Made by a program: the position numbers and the translations under genes. A stretch of 64,000 nt of DNA from an uncultured virus (IMG/VR IMGVR_UViG_3300044946_000014). Taxonomy: Duplodnaviria; Heunggongvirae; Uroviricota; Caudoviricetes. The stretch lies in IMG/VR virus record IMGVR_UViG_3300044946_000014; one strand, 5' to 3'. The notes beneath the pieces were generated by a model. It ran no database searches and had not been told where the DNA came from. It worked only from the letters and a program-made list of their open reading frames with translations. This document shows, piece by piece, positions 50,873 to 57,324 of this stretch (within the stretch, counting starts at the first letter, position 1; every line of letters begins with the position of its first letter).

Positions 50873-51250
50873 TCATGCTGTCAGTCCTGCCTGCTTAAGC
50901 AATTCCACAAACTGCGGACCGAAAGCCTGAAGGGCCTCCATCGCCGCTACCTTTTTGCTGCTTTTATCGCCGACGTACTTCTCGACGAGGTAATAGATCG
51001 GCGTCAAATCGCCGGTCTTATCGAGATACTTCTCCAACGAATCGACGGAGAAATGGCGCGACATATCGTCCGAAAGTTGGACGCTCAAATTGCTCGGCGC
51101 CTGGTCAAGGTCGATTGCTATTCGCTTAAGACCTCGCTGATAGACGCCCGTCGCCACGCAGTCTCGAAGACTTGCGTAACGGTCCACGAGCCCTGGCTCG
51201 AAGTCCAAAACAAGTTGCCCTTCCTTGGGCCTGATAAGCGCCGATTTCAT
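50873..51250 (-). CDS. CII-like regulatory protein
   Basis: LKRIAIDLDQAPSNLSVQL HTH; position between cro and replication genes. Confidence 0.65.
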   Translation of the reverse strand: MKSALIRPKEGQLVLDFEPGLVDRYASLRDCVATGVYQRGLKRIAIDLDQAPSNLSVQLSDDMSRHFSVDSLEKYLDKTGDLTPIYYLVEKYVGDKSSKKVAAMEALQAFGPQFVELLKQAGLTA

Positions 51251-51485
51251 TTGTTATCGCCCCTATTCACCAGTTATCAATGTTCTTGATGAAAAATGAC
51301 GCCATCGACGCCACTATCACTTTAAGACTACTTACAGCATGAACAGCTTTCACGGCCCGCTAGAAGCAAACCGTACTTTCATAAAAAAGAGCGAGATCCT
51401 CTTCGCTCAAAACATCGCACATCGGGGTGTTGTGCGACGCCACAACTTGGTGCGAGTCGTCGTTGCCGACGCGCTCGCGGATTCA

Positions 51486-52454
51486 TCAAATTCCCGCGAT
51501 CAACATCTTTGCTTCACGGATCCGTTTCTCGCATTCTTGAAGATAAGCGGTGCGGGCTTCTTGCTCCGTCGCGAAGTTGCCAATTCGAGTCGATCCGACC
51601 ATCACCTGATACGGTCGCAGAGTACATTTCTTGTTATACGTCCAGCCTCGACCATGCCCGAGCCTCGACTTCCTATTCGGATTGGCTTTAGCCTTGGCTG
51701 CACGTATATGGCCCGGAGTCTTGATATATCCATCTTTCACGTTCTGACTCTGCGTGCAGATATAGACGTTGCCAACCGAATACGAACCATTGTCGCCCTT
51801 ACGGGCCATAACATAGCCATTGCCACGGCCTCTCTCTTCCCACTTGCCAGACTTCTGCCAAACTGCCCACCACTGCGGGAAAGTCAGAGAAAATTCAATG
51901 TTCCGAAAGGTGCTATTCTTCCTGTGCTGAACGTAAGCCTTAGTAGCTTTGTTGGATGTCAATCGAACGCCAACCCCAAGAAGAGTCTCAAGAGAGGAAT
52001 AAATGCATCCGTAGACGCGGAGGCATTGCTCATCTCGGCGAGCGATGATGCGTGTAGAGCGCGCAACCTTTCGGGCCGCCGAATTGATAGCGATGCCGCC
52101 ATCGAGTCGCGTAATACCACGAGCGGAAATTATTTGGCGGACACGTTCTCGCGTTACACCGTGGATCTCGCCAATTTTCTTGAGGCTCAATCCGGCAGAA
52201 TATGCGTCAATCATTTGCTGTGCGCGGGATTCCGATGTAAGCGACTTTGGCTGGATGCGCTTTCGCTTTGCGCCAGCAGCACGAGCGGCATTGTAGATAG
52301 TCACGACATGTACGCCGTACTTTTCCGCGATTTGACTGGTCGGAATGCCCTTATTCCAATCTTCCGCGAACATGTCAAACGTCAAAATCTTTCGCGCCTT
52401 ACGGGCATTCTGATCGCAGTCGCGGCAATTTGCGGGGACGGTCGTGTAGGCCAT
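51486..52454 (-). CDS. HNH-type homing endonuclease with HTH/sigma70-r4 and AP2-like domains
   Basis: GVTRERVRQI; FSLTFPQWW..W...MARKGD.GSYSVGNV.I....QN; IGNFATEQEARTAY. Confidence 0.7.
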   Translation of the reverse strand: MAYTTVPANCRDCDQNARKARKILTFDMFAEDWNKGIPTSQIAEKYGVHVVTIYNAARAAGAKRKRIQPKSLTSESRAQQMIDAYSAGLSLKKIGEIHGVTRERVRQIISARGITRLDGGIAINSAARKVARSTRIIARRDEQCLRVYGCIYSSLETLLGVGVRLTSNKATKAYVQHRKNSTFRNIEFSLTFPQWWAVWQKSGKWEERGRGNGYVMARKGDNGSYSVGNVYICTQSQNVKDGYIKTPGHIRAAKAKANPNRKSRLGHGRGWTYNKKCTLRPYQVMVGSTRIGNFATEQEARTAYLQECEKRIREAKMLIAGI

Positions 52455-52742
52455 TTAAGCCACCGTTCGGGATTGTTTGACCTTGCGGCTGGACGTGCCC
52501 GCCGACTCTTGCACATCATCGCTGGCGACGATGTTCTCTATGCCGTTACCCCATATATCGGGGCGCAACTCTGCCAGCGTAAAACGCGAATCCTGTCTGA
52601 CAATTTCTTTGCAGAGTTCTGTGCCGGGACGCCGGGCGCCACGAGCGCAGTGGTACAGATAGTCATGATTGACCTCCAAAGACTGAGCGAACGCCTCACG
52701 ATCTGGGCGTTTCGTCTGCTTGAAGTAAGTCTTGAGGTCCAT
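52455..52742 (-). CDS. cro: Cro/YdaS-like repressor
   Basis: short HTH ending ELRPDIW, divergent from CI-like gene. Confidence 0.8.
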   Translation of the reverse strand: MDLKTYFKQTKRPDREAFAQSLEVNHDYLYHCARGARRPGTELCKEIVRQDSRFTLAELRPDIWGNGIENIVASDDVQESAGTSSRKVKQSRTVA

Positions 52743-52776
52743 GCCGCCATCCAAAGGTCTGCGTATGGGATCAGTA

Positions 52777-52793
52777 TAGACCAAAAAGGACTA
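52777..52793. promoter_or_regulatory. OR operator
   Basis: TAGACC-AAAAA-GGACTA near-palindrome overlapping TATACT (-10) on minus strand; matches OL site. Confidence 0.7.
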
Positions 52794-52849
52794 TTGCATA
52801 GGACTTTTTGCGCGTTTATCAAATTGATCTGCGTTGGTAGGGTTGAGTC

Positions 52850-53347
52850 ATGAAAACGTGCCGACAAATACGCTACGAAAACGCGCGAACACTCATCGTC
52901 AAGGATGGCCCTGCGAACTTCGCCAGGAAGATTTCGAGCGCTACCGAAGACGTTATGACGCCCCAGCAAGTCAATTCTTGGGGCGGCCCCAATCCGCGAC
53001 GAGGGATTGGCGATGACATTGCGAGGCGCATCGAGCGAGCATATGAGAAGGAAGAAGGATGGCTTGACCATGAGTGGATCGGCGCTGGCGAAACGCAGAA
53101 CAAAGGCCAAAATCGGGCTCTGAGTAACGAAGCAAAAAGTTTGATTGTGTGTGTCGAGCGTCTGGATGTCCTTGGCGACTTGGCTAGGAAAACATTCACC
53201 TACCATACGGGTTTGCTCTTACTTTCTTTGGCTTCTGCTGAGTTGCAGACTGGCGCAGTGCGGTCCCAAATGTTGGAAGAGATAGAGCGTCTGCTGGGTC
53301 CGACACAAACGGATTCCACGGGGGCATCAAATGAACGAAAGAGCTAA
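52850..53347 (+). CDS. CI-like immunity repressor (no recognisable S24 peptidase domain)
   Basis: IRYENAR.L, RGIGDDIARRIE...GWLD HTH; divergent from cro. Confidence 0.75.
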   Translation: MKTCRQIRYENARTLIVKDGPANFARKISSATEDVMTPQQVNSWGGPNPRRGIGDDIARRIERAYEKEEGWLDHEWIGAGETQNKGQNRALSNEAKSLIVCVERLDVLGDLARKTFTYHTGLLLLSLASAELQTGAVRSQMLEEIERLLGPTQTDSTGASNERKS

Positions 53348-53504
53348 CGGCGCCATTATTGATCTAGCGCAATACCGGCAGCGAATCTTGCAACAACAGC
53401 AACGGAGCGAGCTGCATCGAGATATCTCGGATGCGCTCCTTGATACAATTTCCTATCACATCCTGATGGCCGCCCGAGCCATCGCGGCCTCCAAGACCAA
53501 GTAA
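53331..53504 (+). CDS. small protein co-transcribed with repressor
   Basis: 57-aa ORF MNERANGAIIDLAQYRQR..., overlapping the CI end, followed by terminator. Confidence 0.5.
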   Translation: MNERANGAIIDLAQYRQRILQQQQRSELHRDISDALLDTISYHILMAARAIAASKTK

Positions 53505-53523
53505 GCATCTCCAGTTAAATATA

Positions 53524-53548
53524 GAGCCCGCTTCGCGCGGGCTTTTTC
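53524..53548 (+). terminator. intrinsic terminator
   Basis: AGCCCGC-TTCGC-GCGGGCT-TTTT. Confidence 0.8.
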
Positions 53549-53623
53549 ACGTGCTCAAGATGCATGACTATCGGCATGAAGTGTTCGATTAAAAACAATT
53601 ATGCTGATGATGGGGCAAAAAGG

Positions 53624-53652
53624 TTTGCAAATAGACCAATAAGGTCTAAGAT
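53624..53652 (+). promoter_or_regulatory. pL promoter with OL operator
   Basis: TTGCAA...TAAGAT with perfect palindrome TAGACC-AATAA-GGTCTA (53632-53648) in the spacer. Confidence 0.75.
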
Positions 53653-53713
53653 TCATTCCAAGGCAGTACACGACGTCACGACAGACGAACAACGCAATCG
53701 AAGGGGCAACGAC

Positions 53714-53947
53714 GTGAACGCAGAGACCGAAGCAATCGATACGGACAGCGTCCCGGCCGGCATGGTCGAGGTCAGCGAAGAGAAGTTTTTTGCCGTCATG
53801 GGACCGCGTGACGTGCATCCACGCGCGAAGCCTGATCGCAGCGTTTGGGAAATGCCGAATCGCACGGTGCTCGGCCACTCGATGCCGGGATACCTGGCAC
53901 CGACTGGAAAGCCGAAGCTCTTCTTTCTGACGGCCAGTCTCGCCTAA
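53714..53947 (+). CDS. hypothetical protein, first gene of pL operon
   Basis: AAGGGG RBS + GTG. Confidence 0.55.
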   Translation: MNAETEAIDTDSVPAGMVEVSEEKFFAVMGPRDVHPRAKPDRSVWEMPNRTVLGHSMPGYLAPTGKPKLFFLTASLA

Positions 53948-53975
53948 CAACCGCTCCCGCTACAGGAGAAAGACC

Positions 53976-54077
53976 ATGCGCATTGATCTCGATCTCTATC
54001 GCGAACTGCGAGCCGAGGGATGGGCCGCCCAAGCAGCGATCTTTTATGCGCGTCGCGCCGGCCGTTGGCTTGCCTGA
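53976..54077 (+). CDS. 33-aa peptide MRIDLDLYRELRAEGW...
   Basis: AGGAG RBS within repeated junction motif. Confidence 0.55.
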   Translation: MRIDLDLYRELRAEGWAAQAAIFYARRAGRWLA

Positions 54078-54104
54078 CCAACCGCGCCTGCTAGGAGAAA
54101 GACC

Positions 54105-54311
54105 ATGGCACACCAAACGATGAGTGGGCGCTCTGCGCAGGCTCAAATCGACCTCGCGACTGAACGCTATTCCCATCTGCTGATGGAGGACGAGTGGACG
54201 CTCGAATATGCACATCAAGTCCTAGCGCATATCGACGCGCACCACATCGATCTATTTGAGGTGGCCGGACTTGCGAAAGCGATCGCGTGCTTTCAATGCG
54301 CCGCTGACTGA
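54105..54311 (+). CDS. hypothetical protein
   Basis: AGGAG RBS within repeated junction motif. Confidence 0.55.
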   Translation: MAHQTMSGRSAQAQIDLATERYSHLLMEDEWTLEYAHQVLAHIDAHHIDLFEVAGLAKAIACFQCAAD

Positions 54312-54339
54312 CCAACCGCGCCCGCTACGGCGGGAAAAA

Positions 54340-54410
54340 GATCGAAACGCCTAGAGGAAGCGGCAACACACGGCTAGGTGTCTACGCGTGATGCGCGTAC
54401 TGACGAGATC
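54340..54410 (+). ncRNA. hammerhead ribozyme, type II topology
   Basis: GATC-GAAA-[CGCCTAG..CTAGGTG]-TC-[TACGCG-TGATG-CGCGTA]-CTGACGA-GATC; all core nucleotides present. Confidence 0.85.
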
Positions 54411-54477
54411 GTAATAGCGCCAACGGGCGCGCCGTTCTGGTGACAGCGGGCGGGTTCTTTAAAAATCGACGGTTTTG

Positions 54478-55492
54478 ATCCGGGACGCGCAAGCGAGCAA
54501 CCGGGCGTTGTGCTCATGGTGCACACGAGATAGCGCTAGGACAGGCAACCATTTCCCGAAAGGGACACCGAACAAAGCAACCGCTGGTGTAGAAAGCGGA
54601 GCGCCCGCGATAGTCGCGTGACCAGGTGAGTCATGATGGCGTCACGGAAGGCGTGCGGCCCGGGAATACAGACCGGCGCCGCACGTAAAGCAGTTCTTCT
54701 GAGAAGGCCGCTGAACTCCCTACGCGGCCGAGTAATCGCGAAACCGATCCACCTTAATGCCCAGCCCCTCGTGGCGGGTTGGTGCAGTAGATTAGCCGAA
54801 GGCCGCTGTATAGCAACAGCGCCTTCTCAGAAGGATTGCGGTAGAGCAGCGTGTGCATCCACACCGCGAAAGCGGGTTGCATGAACGGGAGAAGGTGGAT
54901 AGGCCCGTTTCTCCAGGCTGGCACGGAGACTTTGTCGGAACGGCGTACCGCAAGAAGCCAGTTAGCTCCGCCCGATTGACCGCCGTAAGCGGTCGCCCGG
55001 TAAGCGCATTCGTTGAGTGTGCTTACCGGGACTGGATGACTTTGCGGAGGTTCAAGACGGTCCCCATAAATGTCCACGAATCTCCAAAGTTGGCGACTCA
55101 ATAGCCTGGCAGCCCGGAAAGACGGCCCTCAGCAGTGCTGAGGCGAGACGATTGCCGCGGAAGCGGTGCAGGCACTGTCCGGGAGCCAGCCTTAAGAACA
55201 ATCGTCTCGACCTGAGCATTGCAAGCAGCTTGAGTGGATGGTGCTATGCGGCTCCTAGCGAGCTGGTGACGTGCGCTGGCAGACATGGAAACGGCGATGC
55301 TTAGGCATTTAGGTCCGCCCATAGCCGATCGGAAACACAGGCCGATCCATAGCGTCATCCACTGAAGCTGTTTCAAGGCACCCCACCCAAGCAACCCGCA
55401 GACATTGACGATTGGGCCTCGTCAACCATACCCCATGCTTAGGGATGAGACTCCAAAACCGCTGCCTGATGCGGAATCTGCCGGTTGCTTGG
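54478..55492 (+). ncRNA. array of structured non-coding RNA units
   Basis: no credible ORF; multiple 15-26 bp closing stems and GNRA hairpins. Confidence 0.6.
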
Positions 55493-55529
55493 CTGGACTG
55501 CTTTTTCTGTCACTAATTTAGGACTCCAT

Positions 55530-55637
55530 ATGCTTTGGGGAATTGTTGTGACACTCATCGCTGCGTTTGCTCTGTTCTTGTGGGCACTTCGCAGCGGCTT
55601 CAAGATCATCGAGAGAGATGATCATCATCGGCATTAA
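55530..55637 (+). CDS. 35-aa membrane peptide
   Basis: AGGA RBS; MLWGIVVTLIAAFALFLWALRSGF... Confidence 0.5.
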   Translation: MLWGIVVTLIAAFALFLWALRSGFKIIERDDHHRH

Positions 55638-55649
55638 CTAGGAGCAATC

Positions 55650-56012
55650 ATGCAGATTCAGCTTCCCCCGCTCACTGACGGCGAGATTTATCTCTGCGGC
55701 TTCGTCGACAAGAATGGCGACGTCACTCACACGATCCTGCTGCCGGGTGACAACGATCCTGCGACATGGCAGGAACAGATGAACTGGGCCAAGAGCATCG
55801 GTGGTGATTTGCCGACGCGCGCCGAGCTCGTGATCGCCTACGAACAGCATCGCGACCTGTTCGAGAAGGCTGCGTACTGGTCCAACACGCCGGACGACGC
55901 CCCCGACTATGCCGGCTGGGCTTGGTGTCAGGGCTTCGGCCACGGTAGCCAGAACTGTGACGGCCGCTACTTTCAGTTCCGTGCCCGGGCCGTTCGCAGA
56001 TTGTCGATTTAA
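55650..56012 (+). CDS. DGR target protein 1 (DUF1566/C-type-lectin-like fold) with C-terminal VR
   Basis: LPTRAEL, YWS, WAW.Q.F..G.Q......FRARAVRR; VR 55912-55999. Confidence 0.88.
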   Translation: MQIQLPPLTDGEIYLCGFVDKNGDVTHTILLPGDNDPATWQEQMNWAKSIGGDLPTRAELVIAYEQHRDLFEKAAYWSNTPDDAPDYAGWAWCQGFGHGSQNCDGRYFQFRARAVRRLSI

Positions 56013-56041
56013 CCCTTCATCCATTTTCAACGGAGAAAGCA

Positions 56042-56506
56042 ATGACGATGACGCTTGAAGCAATCGAAGCCGAGCACGTGCGCATCGGCGCGATGATCGA
56101 AGAATTCAAGAAGCAGCCGAGAGCAACCGAGTACCATGTCGACGCCGTCACCATCCCGCTCGCGGCAGGTGAGCGCATCGCCGGCCAGATTCTTCTCGAA
56201 GACGGATCGTTGAGCCACTACCTGATTCTCCTGCCGGGGGAGGCCGAAGATCTGGATTGGGAGGCGGCGAAGGCATGGGCCGCCGAACGTGGCGGCGAAC
56301 TGCCGACGCGACGGGAGCAATCGCTTCTGTTCGCCAATCTGAAGCCTGAGTTCGAGCCGACTTGGTACTGGTCCGGCGAACGTCACGAATCGAACTCCGG
56401 CTGGGCTTGGTTTCAGTACTTCACCAGCGGTACCCAGTACTCTACCGGCCACGACAATCAGTTCCGTGCCCGGGCCGTTCGCAGGTTCATTCCTTCAATT
56501 TTTTAG
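56042..56506 (+). CDS. DGR target protein 2 (DUF1566/C-type-lectin-like fold) with C-terminal VR
   Basis: LPTRREQ, WYWS, WAW.Q.F..G.Q......FRARAVRR; VR 56397-56484. Confidence 0.88.
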   Translation: MTMTLEAIEAEHVRIGAMIEEFKKQPRATEYHVDAVTIPLAAGERIAGQILLEDGSLSHYLILLPGEAEDLDWEAAKAWAAERGGELPTRREQSLLFANLKPEFEPTWYWSGERHESNSGWAWFQYFTSGTQYSTGHDNQFRARAVRRFIPSIF

Positions 56507-56518
56507 TCATTCATCCCC

Positions 56519-56728
56519 ATGGCGCTTCATACCGAGCTCGACATATATCGAGATGCGTGTGACTTGTTTGCCGCGATCGCGAATGCCGTCGCGAACATGC
56601 GAAAGGACTTCAAGCCATTGATCGGTCAGGAGCTTTTGAGAGAAAGCACGCGAATCACGATCTACATCTTCCGCGCGAATGCGGCCACCGACAAGGCGCC
56701 GCATCTGATGAAGAGCGCACATCCATGA
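56519..56728 (+). pseudogene. avd: truncated Avd (four-helix bundle DGR accessory protein)
   Basis: LHTELDIYRDACDL...KDFKPLIGQEL....IFRAN resembles Avd helices 1-2; ends at 69 aa. Confidence 0.75.
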
Positions 56729-57324
56729 ATCCAAACGGCAACATCAAACACGGTCATCACGGATCGCGAACGTACCAGCGTTGGAAGTCCATGCGCCAGC
56801 GCACCAATCCGGGCCGGAGCGCGCATCACGCGAAGTATTACGACGGAGTGACATGCTGTGAACGGTGGGCAGATTTCGAAGCATTCCTCGCTGATATGGG
56901 CGAATGTCCCGCCGAGCATACACTTGATCGTTTCCCGAATGCGAATGGTAATTATGAACCGGGAAACTGCCGCTGGGCGACGATGGCCGAGCAGAACGCC
57001 AATCGCTCTAACTGCCACATGATCACACGCGATGGCGTGACGAAAACAGCAACGGAATGGGCGAAAGCACTTGGATTGCGACCAGTCACAGTCATCGCCC
57101 GTTTGCAGCGCGGCTGGGATCATGAGCGTGTACTGTCTGAGGCACCGGGAACGACTGGTGGCTGCTCATATCCAGAGATTGATCTGACATTTCGCGGACA
57201 GACCAAACCTCTCGTTGCATGGGCGCGCGAGATTGGAATGACGCCCAATGCATTTCGAATGAGATTGCGGCTCGGCTGGTCAGTCGAGCGCGCACTCACG
57301 CAACCACTTAAGGCGCGCGGCTAA
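56725..57324 (+). CDS. HNH-like endonuclease with duplicated C-terminal HTH
   Basis: W.SMRQR, CERW..FEAFLADMG, TLDR...NGNYEPGNCRWAT..EQ.ANR; two G.TK....WA..LG....RL..GW..ER.L repeats. Confidence 0.85.
   Translation: MNPNGNIKHGHHGSRTYQRWKSMRQRTNPGRSAHHAKYYDGVTCCERWADFEAFLADMGECPAEHTLDRFPNANGNYEPGNCRWATMAEQNANRSNCHMITRDGVTKTATEWAKALGLRPVTVIARLQRGWDHERVLSEAPGTTGGCSYPEIDLTFRGQTKPLVAWAREIGMTPNAFRMRLRLGWSVERALTQPLKARG

Follow-up and report, generated by a model that had tools for sequence, protein, structure and literature searches.

The window, a 64,000-nt stretch of DNA from an uncultured virus, is a lambdoid prophage of Burkholderia type, carrying integrase, terminase, portal, tail and lysis genes and three tRNAs, with O- and P-like replication genes on the - strand. 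Within its immunity region a cro-like gene on the - strand (52455-52784) faces a cI-like gene on the + strand (52850-53347). The latter is followed by a 57-aa ORF and then by a terminator hairpin with a T run (53525-53543, + strand). Beyond the terminator lies a putative early-left promoter, pL (53625-53652, + strand), which is sigma-70-like (TTGCAA, a 16-nt spacer, TAAGAT) and encloses an operator-like palindrome (53631-53648) that recurs at 52776-52793 and 52798-52810 in the gap between the cro- and cI-like genes. The promoter is termed putative because a consensus promoter scan reported no site at this position. The related locus L004 is 97% identical to the window from 51100 to 53675 and divergent beyond.

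Three small genes follow on the + strand (53714-53947, 53977-54078 and 54105-54311), each with a Shine-Dalgarno-like sequence, after a repeated junction motif; none of the three has a PHROG or Pfam match. Gene layout, ribosome-binding sites and the arrangement of promoter and operators point to transcription of the + strand, from which we infer an early transcript running rightward through the small genes. The junction motif, found at 53944-53978, 54074-54104 and 54306-54334, consists of a stop codon and then CAACCGC-N-CC-GCUAC; two copies continue into AGGAGAAAGACC-AUG and one into the hammerhead described below. The first copy recurs with 95-100% identity over ~39 nt in L005, L008, L006 and L009, where the flanks are otherwise unrelated. 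The - strand also carries an HTH gene of 322 aa (51486-52454; Pfam HTH_23, phrog_16521) with its own terminator at 51389-51408. A 504-aa ORF on the + strand (51339-52853), first taken as part of the cI operon, gave no family matches and is probably spurious, being overlapped by this - strand HTH gene with its own terminator.

A hammerhead motif on the + strand starts 28 nt past the stop codon of the third small gene, which places it ~720 nt into the pL-like early transcript, counted from the operator-covered putative promoter, where protein-coding genes give way to non-coding sequence. Directly 5' of stem II is an A at position -1 (54339), a hallmark of the subclass treated below and an A in 7/7 sequences of the window's lineage. 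The 3'-side strand of stem II, GAUC (54340-54343, with C54343 as 11.1), leads into the core GAAA (54344-54347; G12 A13 A14 A15.1), unchanged in every homologue. The stem III hairpin (54347-54381) pairs ACGCCUAG (54347-54354) with CUAGGUGU (54374-54381) in 8 bp, one G.U included, around a 19-nt loop (54355-54373). GUC occupies 54380-54382, C54382 being H17, and hammerhead numbering places the predicted scissile bond between C17 and U1.1 (54382-54383). Stem-loop I, 17 nt long (54383-54399), pairs UACGCG (54383-54388) with CGCGUA (54394-54399) in 6 bp plus one U.G pair, with the loop UGAUG. The core CUGACGA (54400-54406; C3 U4 G5 A6 N7 G8 A9) then joins the 5'-side strand of stem II, GAUC (54407-54410, with G54407 as 10.1), the partner of 54340-54343.

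Stems II, I and III thus comprise 4, 6(+1) and 8 bp around the core, and the core-closing pairs are all standard (10.1-11.1 G-C, 1.1-2.1 U-A, 15.1-16.1 A-U), with no mispair beside the core. Every core feature in the Methods list of PMC3088659 is found, at 54344-47, 54381-82 and 54400-06. Stems I and III are loop-capped and stem II is open, as in type II topology, and the same order of elements is present in every homologue. When the 71 nt are folded in isolation, the minimum-free-energy structure is exactly the predicted three-way junction, with a fold energy that is ordinary against shuffles (z = -0.52). In a 181-nt context the minimum-free-energy structure is without stem II, and folding of the ribozyme would therefore need to be co-transcriptional. 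A type II descriptor demanding the core with stem III of at least 4 bp, stem I of at least 4 bp and stem II of at least 3 bp matches once on both strands of the 64-kb window and in 0/300 dinucleotide-preserving shuffles of it. Three CUGANGA words occur in 50-60 kb, and a hammerhead is built around only one.

BLAST against 50,697 phage records found the ribozyme only in Burkholderia phage BcepC6B, at 83.5% identity over 85 nt; the matches are two records of one phage, with no feature annotated at the site. An exact pattern for the lineage matched 7 IMG/VR contigs, one of them BcepC6B, giving together with the window 6 distinct sequences, and returned 0 matches in species-representative genomes. 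Looser patterns found at least 120 loci each in species-representative genomes and metagenome contigs; the descriptor fitted 3 of the 240 matches listed, none of them of the lineage. When 150 genomes from a single family were searched with model R1, 13 of them had matches; among the alignments listed the hammerhead core is present only in L257, the next nine being without GAAA or CUGA. BLAST of 54330-55650 against 397 genomes recovered single modules in 4 and covered the ribozyme in none, and plasmids searched for a homologue gave no match. The literature searched yielded nothing joining a hammerhead with BcepC6B, or a hammerhead with a diversity-generating retroelement (DGR) relevant to this site.

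Within the lineage, conservation begins exactly at A54339, upstream of which the 5' flanks are unalignable; the ribozyme is a discrete conserved module amid unrelated flanks. The core varies only at N7 (C or U) and at H17 (C or A). In the 6 distinct sequences every pair cell holds a standard pair (114/114), and compensatory change is found for both capped stems: five pairs change on both sides, two in stem III (UA to GC/GU, AU to GC) and three in stem I. The covariation score is 0.277 against 0.111±0.028 for shuffles, 0/500 of which reach it, and every slid register collapses. RNAalifold, run on the lineage alignment without guidance, gives the same three helices. Stem II (GAUC/GAUC) is constant throughout the lineage and therefore uninformative for covariation. 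The more distant relatives L257 and Bcep176 retain the fold.

In BcepC6B the ribozyme occupies the interval between gp42 and gp41 and follows the cI-like gp44 on the same strand, and at 5/6 other distinct loci a gene of a repressor family is found ~0.75-1.2 kb upstream on the same strand. L005 and L008 carry the same ribozyme between lectin-fold genes of a DGR with full Avd and RT-15 RNA, and in BcepC6B, L006 and L257 it stands 25-50 nt ahead of an ordinary gene.

A wider subclass becomes visible when only the core and stem II are fixed. Using the pattern GAUC-GAAAC ... GUH ... CUGANGA-GAUC, the IMG/VR search found at least 125 loci, several with 2-4 copies, and 115 distinct hammerheads among the matches listed. 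Features that the pattern left free are strongly shared among these listed matches: A at -1 in 115/115, a stem-loop I of 17 nt in 109/115 and, within the 17-nt stem-loops, U at loop I position 1 in 109/109 and A at position 3 in 86/109. An A-rich 3' tail is a further subclass feature outside the pattern. The window copy has the -1 A, the 17-nt stem-loop I, the loop I U and A and the A-rich tail. Taking as operational definition of the subclass a -1 A, a 4-bp GAUC stem II, a 17-nt stem-loop I with loop U1 and a significant score with a model from other lineages, the window copy shows all four. The model in question, R2, was built from 26 equal-length subclass members, none from the window's lineage, in which 416/416 pair cells are paired and 10/16 pairs covary. 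It scores the window site at 55.4 bits (E=2.7e-12) and the relatives L257, BcepC6B and Bcep176 at 53.3, 48.3 and 35.9 bits. A second hammerhead in the window was sought with R2 and none was found, the next match having 13.8 bits.

Among 75 subclass members from the matches listed, 51 have a ribosome-binding site with start codon and ORF no more than 60 nt downstream (opposite-strand control, 0/75) and 45 follow an open frame within 80 nt. For prophage hammerheads Perreault et al. proposed a part in processing polycistronic RNA (PMC3088659), and positions between open frames and gene starts fit this. A role as intercistronic spacer does not transfer directly to the window copy, since no gene starts within 60 nt downstream of it.

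At gathering thresholds for Rfam families the whole window yields three tRNAs and no ribozyme. The first-pass annotation had pointed to the Rfam hammerhead models, and in a permissive scan of 53800-56500 RF02276 (Hammerhead_II) does align at the right place, end to end (model positions 1-66) over 54340-54417, but at 19.8 bits (E=0.93), under the cut-off of 37. At the gathering score Rfam reports no hammerhead in 20 loci each holding at least one subclass hammerhead, nor, at E<=1, any hammerhead match in the 7 loci of the window's lineage. The model's coverage, then, accounts for the low RF02276 score. With the type II model blind in 20 GAUC-stem-II loci, routine annotation will leave such sites unlabelled, a point of practical relevance.

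The window copy departs from the type II consensus in the pseudoknot. In the consensus of Perreault et al., loop I pairs with the 3' tail that follows stem II in a pseudoknot of at least 4 bp, described as critical (PMC3088659). Such a pairing was considered for the window lineage and rejected: loop I has 5 nt and the complementarity is not conserved in 7 sequences (judged by eye in two alignments). The tail of L009, shorter by 4 nt, likewise counts against it. According to the same source only ~40% of hammerheads use the pseudoknot (PMC3088659), so its absence does not bar membership of the class. The invariant -1 A and loop I U suggest, from sequence conservation, a different contact between stem I and stem II, a tertiary contact that would serve fast cleavage. 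Such a contact might resemble those formed between loops in type I and III hammerheads.

Compared with the RF02276 consensus, then, the window copy has the same catalytic core, with stems I and III capped and stem II open, and differs in its 4-bp stem II (GAUC), 5-nt loop I, 19-nt loop III and inability to form the pseudoknot. The closest characterized relative, and the only homologue with a measured cleavage rate, is the intergenic hammerhead of Bcep176 (L411 2667-2741), which aligns with the window lineage over its whole length. This ribozyme, as described in PMC3088659, has an A6C core change and cleaves in vitro with a kobs of <0.1 per min. Both have type II topology, 17 nt in stem-loop I and the same hairpin immediately following stem II. 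The long stem III loop of Bcep176, related to that of the window copy, runs from GAGGAAG to ACGGC, and its loop I, UUAUG, is identical to that of L004 and L005. Where Bcep176 has A6C and a G.U pair in stem II, the window copy keeps the canonical A6 and pairs all four positions of stem II in Watson-Crick fashion. The Bcep176 copy follows gp32 and faces a convergent gene.

Type II hammerheads of prophages are already well known, and the window copy is an ordinary addition to them. Clustered prophage hammerheads have been described in A. tumefaciens and A. caulinodans (PMC3088659); like these and like the GAUC subclass, the window copy lies inside a phage operon on the coding strand, and unlike the clustered ones it is single, with two conserved hairpins and ~1.1 kb of folded, ORF-poor RNA downstream. 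In Desulfovibrio vulgaris, three type II hammerheads near phage-like genes cleave in cells, as detected by cyPhyRNA-seq, and yield 2',3'-cyclic phosphate and 5'-OH ends in vivo (PMC8782182). The window copy resembles them in type and in its phage-gene setting, its own cleavage being predicted from sequence. The GAUC-subclass motif gave no string match in the supplement of PMC8782182, in which sequences may be broken by spaces.

Conservation extends past the ribozyme into a 3' tail on the + strand (54411-54465), made up of GUAAUA, a hairpin GCGCC-AACG-GGCGC (54417-54430) and a second G+C-rich hairpin. This tail is conserved together with the ribozyme in L003, L004, L005, L008 and L009; its first hairpin occurs in Bcep176 as well, and in L004 flipped pairs preserve it. 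Ribozyme and 55-nt tail travel as a 128-nt module among Burkholderia-type phages, typically ~1 kb downstream of a repressor gene.

The tail opens an ORF-poor mosaic of structured RNA modules on the + strand, ~1.1 kb long (54411-55505), which would form the 3' cleavage product. No convincing genes were found in it, the ORFs tried giving no PHROG or Pfam match, and the modules have no Rfam match in the permissive scan of 53800-56500. Modules at 54652-54839, 54938-55076, 55107-55204 and 55375-55522 recur separately in other Burkholderia/Ralstonia phages. The stretch 54650-54845 folds at -100 kcal/mol against -68.7±4.5 for shuffles (z = -6.9), and sliding-fold minima also occur at 54960-55099, 55100-55239 and 55380-55519. 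Ahead of the lectin-fold genes, the ~1.1-kb stretch ends in a hairpin that resembles a terminator and is followed by a T run (55481-55505, + strand). Three RNA runs contain 7-10% of sampled words, with contigs of relatives over 54416-54839 and other modules; these contigs carry no end information, and DNA carry-over is possible, so that they do not bear on cleavage.

Several further details of the modules can be noted. The stretch 54650-54845 is 92.5% identical to L004 and contains a covarying 5' hairpin and a ~19-bp long-range helix enclosing ~115 nt; this long, nearly perfect helix, as modelled, is a possible RNase III site. Single recurrences of 54938-55076, 55107-55204, 55234-55377 and 55375-55522 are found in phage Mica, Ralstonia phage UAM5, L003, L009, L005 and L008, and single downstream modules also occur in four genomes, G102 (twice), G244, G329 and G357. 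Several of the recurring modules coincide with folding minima, and module 55375-55522 closes with the terminator-like hairpin. Just ahead of the first lectin-fold gene, an ORF of 35 codons at 55530-55637, which has a Shine-Dalgarno-like sequence, encodes a hydrophobic peptide; an RNA-library contig of a relative spans this ORF and continues into a similar gene start.

Two lectin-fold ORFs follow on the + strand (55650-56012 and 56042-56506), their 3' ends bearing a 91-nt repeat (55912-56002 and 56397-56487, 81% identical) of the kind expected for a variable repeat. The DGR region as a whole spans 55650-57324 and includes an Avd-like ORF of 69 aa, against 123 aa in L005, with an HNH endonuclease gene directly after it. 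No third (template) copy of the repeat is present in the window, and no reverse-transcriptase Pfam match was found among the window ORFs searched (all of at least 170 aa and selected smaller ones). A DGR is defined by a reverse transcriptase, a template repeat, Avd and a variable repeat at the 3' end of a target gene; that of the window looks incomplete, there being no template repeat, no reverse transcriptase and no full Avd. The first-pass annotation had described a downstream RNA array and a DGR-target mRNA. The array holds good as a series of conserved, strongly folding, ORF-poor modules; a single continuous DGR-target mRNA is not assured, because the terminator-like hairpin at 55481-55505 separates the array from the lectin-fold genes. 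At L005, a full-length Avd gene is directly followed by an RT-15 RNA (RF03018, 161.7 bits; 209-399, - strand of the locus), and this position ties the orphan 'RT motif' to a DGR of lectin-fold targets.

Taken on its sequence and conservation, the element at 54340-54410 (+) is a real hammerhead ribozyme of type II, adding one more member to a well-known family of phage ribozymes. The first-pass annotation had located the core GAAA, GUC and CUGACGA, stem III, stem I TACGCG/CGCGTA and the open stem II GATC/GATC, all of them exact to the base and at the places claimed. Its assignment to type II, with a predicted cut after C54382 on the + strand, is upheld by the full core, the covariation of stems I and III, the class-model score and a homologue, Bcep176, that cleaves. 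The pL setting it proposed agrees with the cI/cro pair, the terminator at 53525-53543, the operator-like palindrome that the promoter shares with the cI/cro gap, and the three small genes with good ribosome-binding sites.

We consider it very probable that this hammerhead self-cleaves within the + strand early-left (pL-like) transcript of the lambdoid prophage. Self-cleavage chemistry is established for the hammerhead family. Transcription from the putative pL would carry RNA through the three small genes into the ribozyme, the three-way junction could fold once position 54410 is transcribed, and a co-transcriptional internal transesterification would then occur between C54382 and U54383. The upstream product would be the small-gene RNA, with the stem III hairpin and a 2',3'-cyclic phosphate at its 3' end; the downstream product would open with a 5'-hydroxyl right where the stem I hairpin starts, and the predicted fold of this product does have the stem I hairpin at its 5' end. 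Such a cut would uncouple the fate of the small-gene mRNA, in stability and translation, from that of the ~1.1-kb folded RNA and any read-through. For the window site, transcription from pL on the + strand, cleavage in vivo and effects on RNA stability are what we infer from this arrangement. Synthetic ribozyme insulators placed in 5' leaders work on the principle that self-cleavage gives a hairpin-capped 5'-OH end independent of upstream sequence. Those are engineered parts, whereas the window element is a natural phage element with the same predicted working principle.

The loop of stem III allows another reading, in which the hammerhead cuts slowly or conditionally, loop III or the flanking hairpins bind a protein or an RNA, and the element is a regulated switch, or chiefly a 3'-end and stability element of the small-gene mRNA, instead of a site of constitutive processing. 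Loop III varies at only 3/19 positions in the lineage while the surrounding stems covary, and it is partly retained in Bcep176, where both ends are kept. It is dispensable for the fold, because the minimal relative L257, from which the long loop is missing, folds with a loop of 4 nt. The Bcep176 homologue is slow and ends a block of genes facing a convergent one, the canonical tertiary pseudoknot cannot form in the window copy, and regulated cleavage is among the proposals of Perreault et al. for phage hammerheads (PMC3088659). A pairing partner for loop III was sought in the window, and its complements occur there at chance level (49 matches vs 53.8 expected). The core of the window copy is fully canonical, unlike that of Bcep176, and the invariant -1 A and loop I U1 suggest a tertiary contact for fast cleavage. 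On balance slow or conditional cutting appears unlikely.

It is far less probable that the site is a decayed or inactive relic, kept only through recent acquisition in a mosaic module and without present function. The lineage is indeed small and shallow (6 distinct sequences with 91% mean column identity) and its stem II never varies, as such a history would allow; against this, the module has been kept while its flanks became unalignable, all changes within stems are compensatory (0/114 cells unpaired), the fold persists in the more distant L257 and Bcep176 and the same constraints hold across the 115 distinct subclass sequences among the matches listed. Chance resemblance to a hammerhead, or a DNA-level element such as two GATC sites with no role as RNA, would accommodate the sub-threshold Rfam score and unremarkable fold energy and can practically be set aside in view of the 0/300 shuffles with the motif, the strand-specific RNA covariation and an independent model at E=2.7e-12.

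What novelty there is might reside less in the ribozyme itself than in its conserved loop III and in the folded RNA modules that the cut would release. As a speculative extension, which we hold only tentatively, the hammerhead of this prophage group could, instead of serving as an intercistronic spacer, mature the 5' end of a ~1.1-kb non-coding RNA (54383 to ~55505) transcribed from pL, with loop III as a binding site that tunes the timing of the cut. If true, this would be a ribozyme-matured phage non-coding RNA, from a terminator-ended locus of exchangeable folded RNA modules in the immunity-proximal early region, beside lectin genes of DGR type.

Two minor observations arose from the wider searches. 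A repeat of ~55-80 nt with an invariant hairpin gave weak matches to model R1 at L258, L259, L260, L270, L271, L274 and L276 (genomes G054, G100 and G113), with up to 8 copies in one genome of ~2 Mb; it was rejected as a hammerhead, as AUGACG replaces CUGANGA and the core is missing, and is a different repeat. In some subclass members, at the IMG/VR loci L285, L302, L326, L287 and L321, the tail after stem II, AUCAG or GUCAG, is complementary to the core CUGAY. This pairing, which the window copy is without, could make an alternative hairpin that hides the core.
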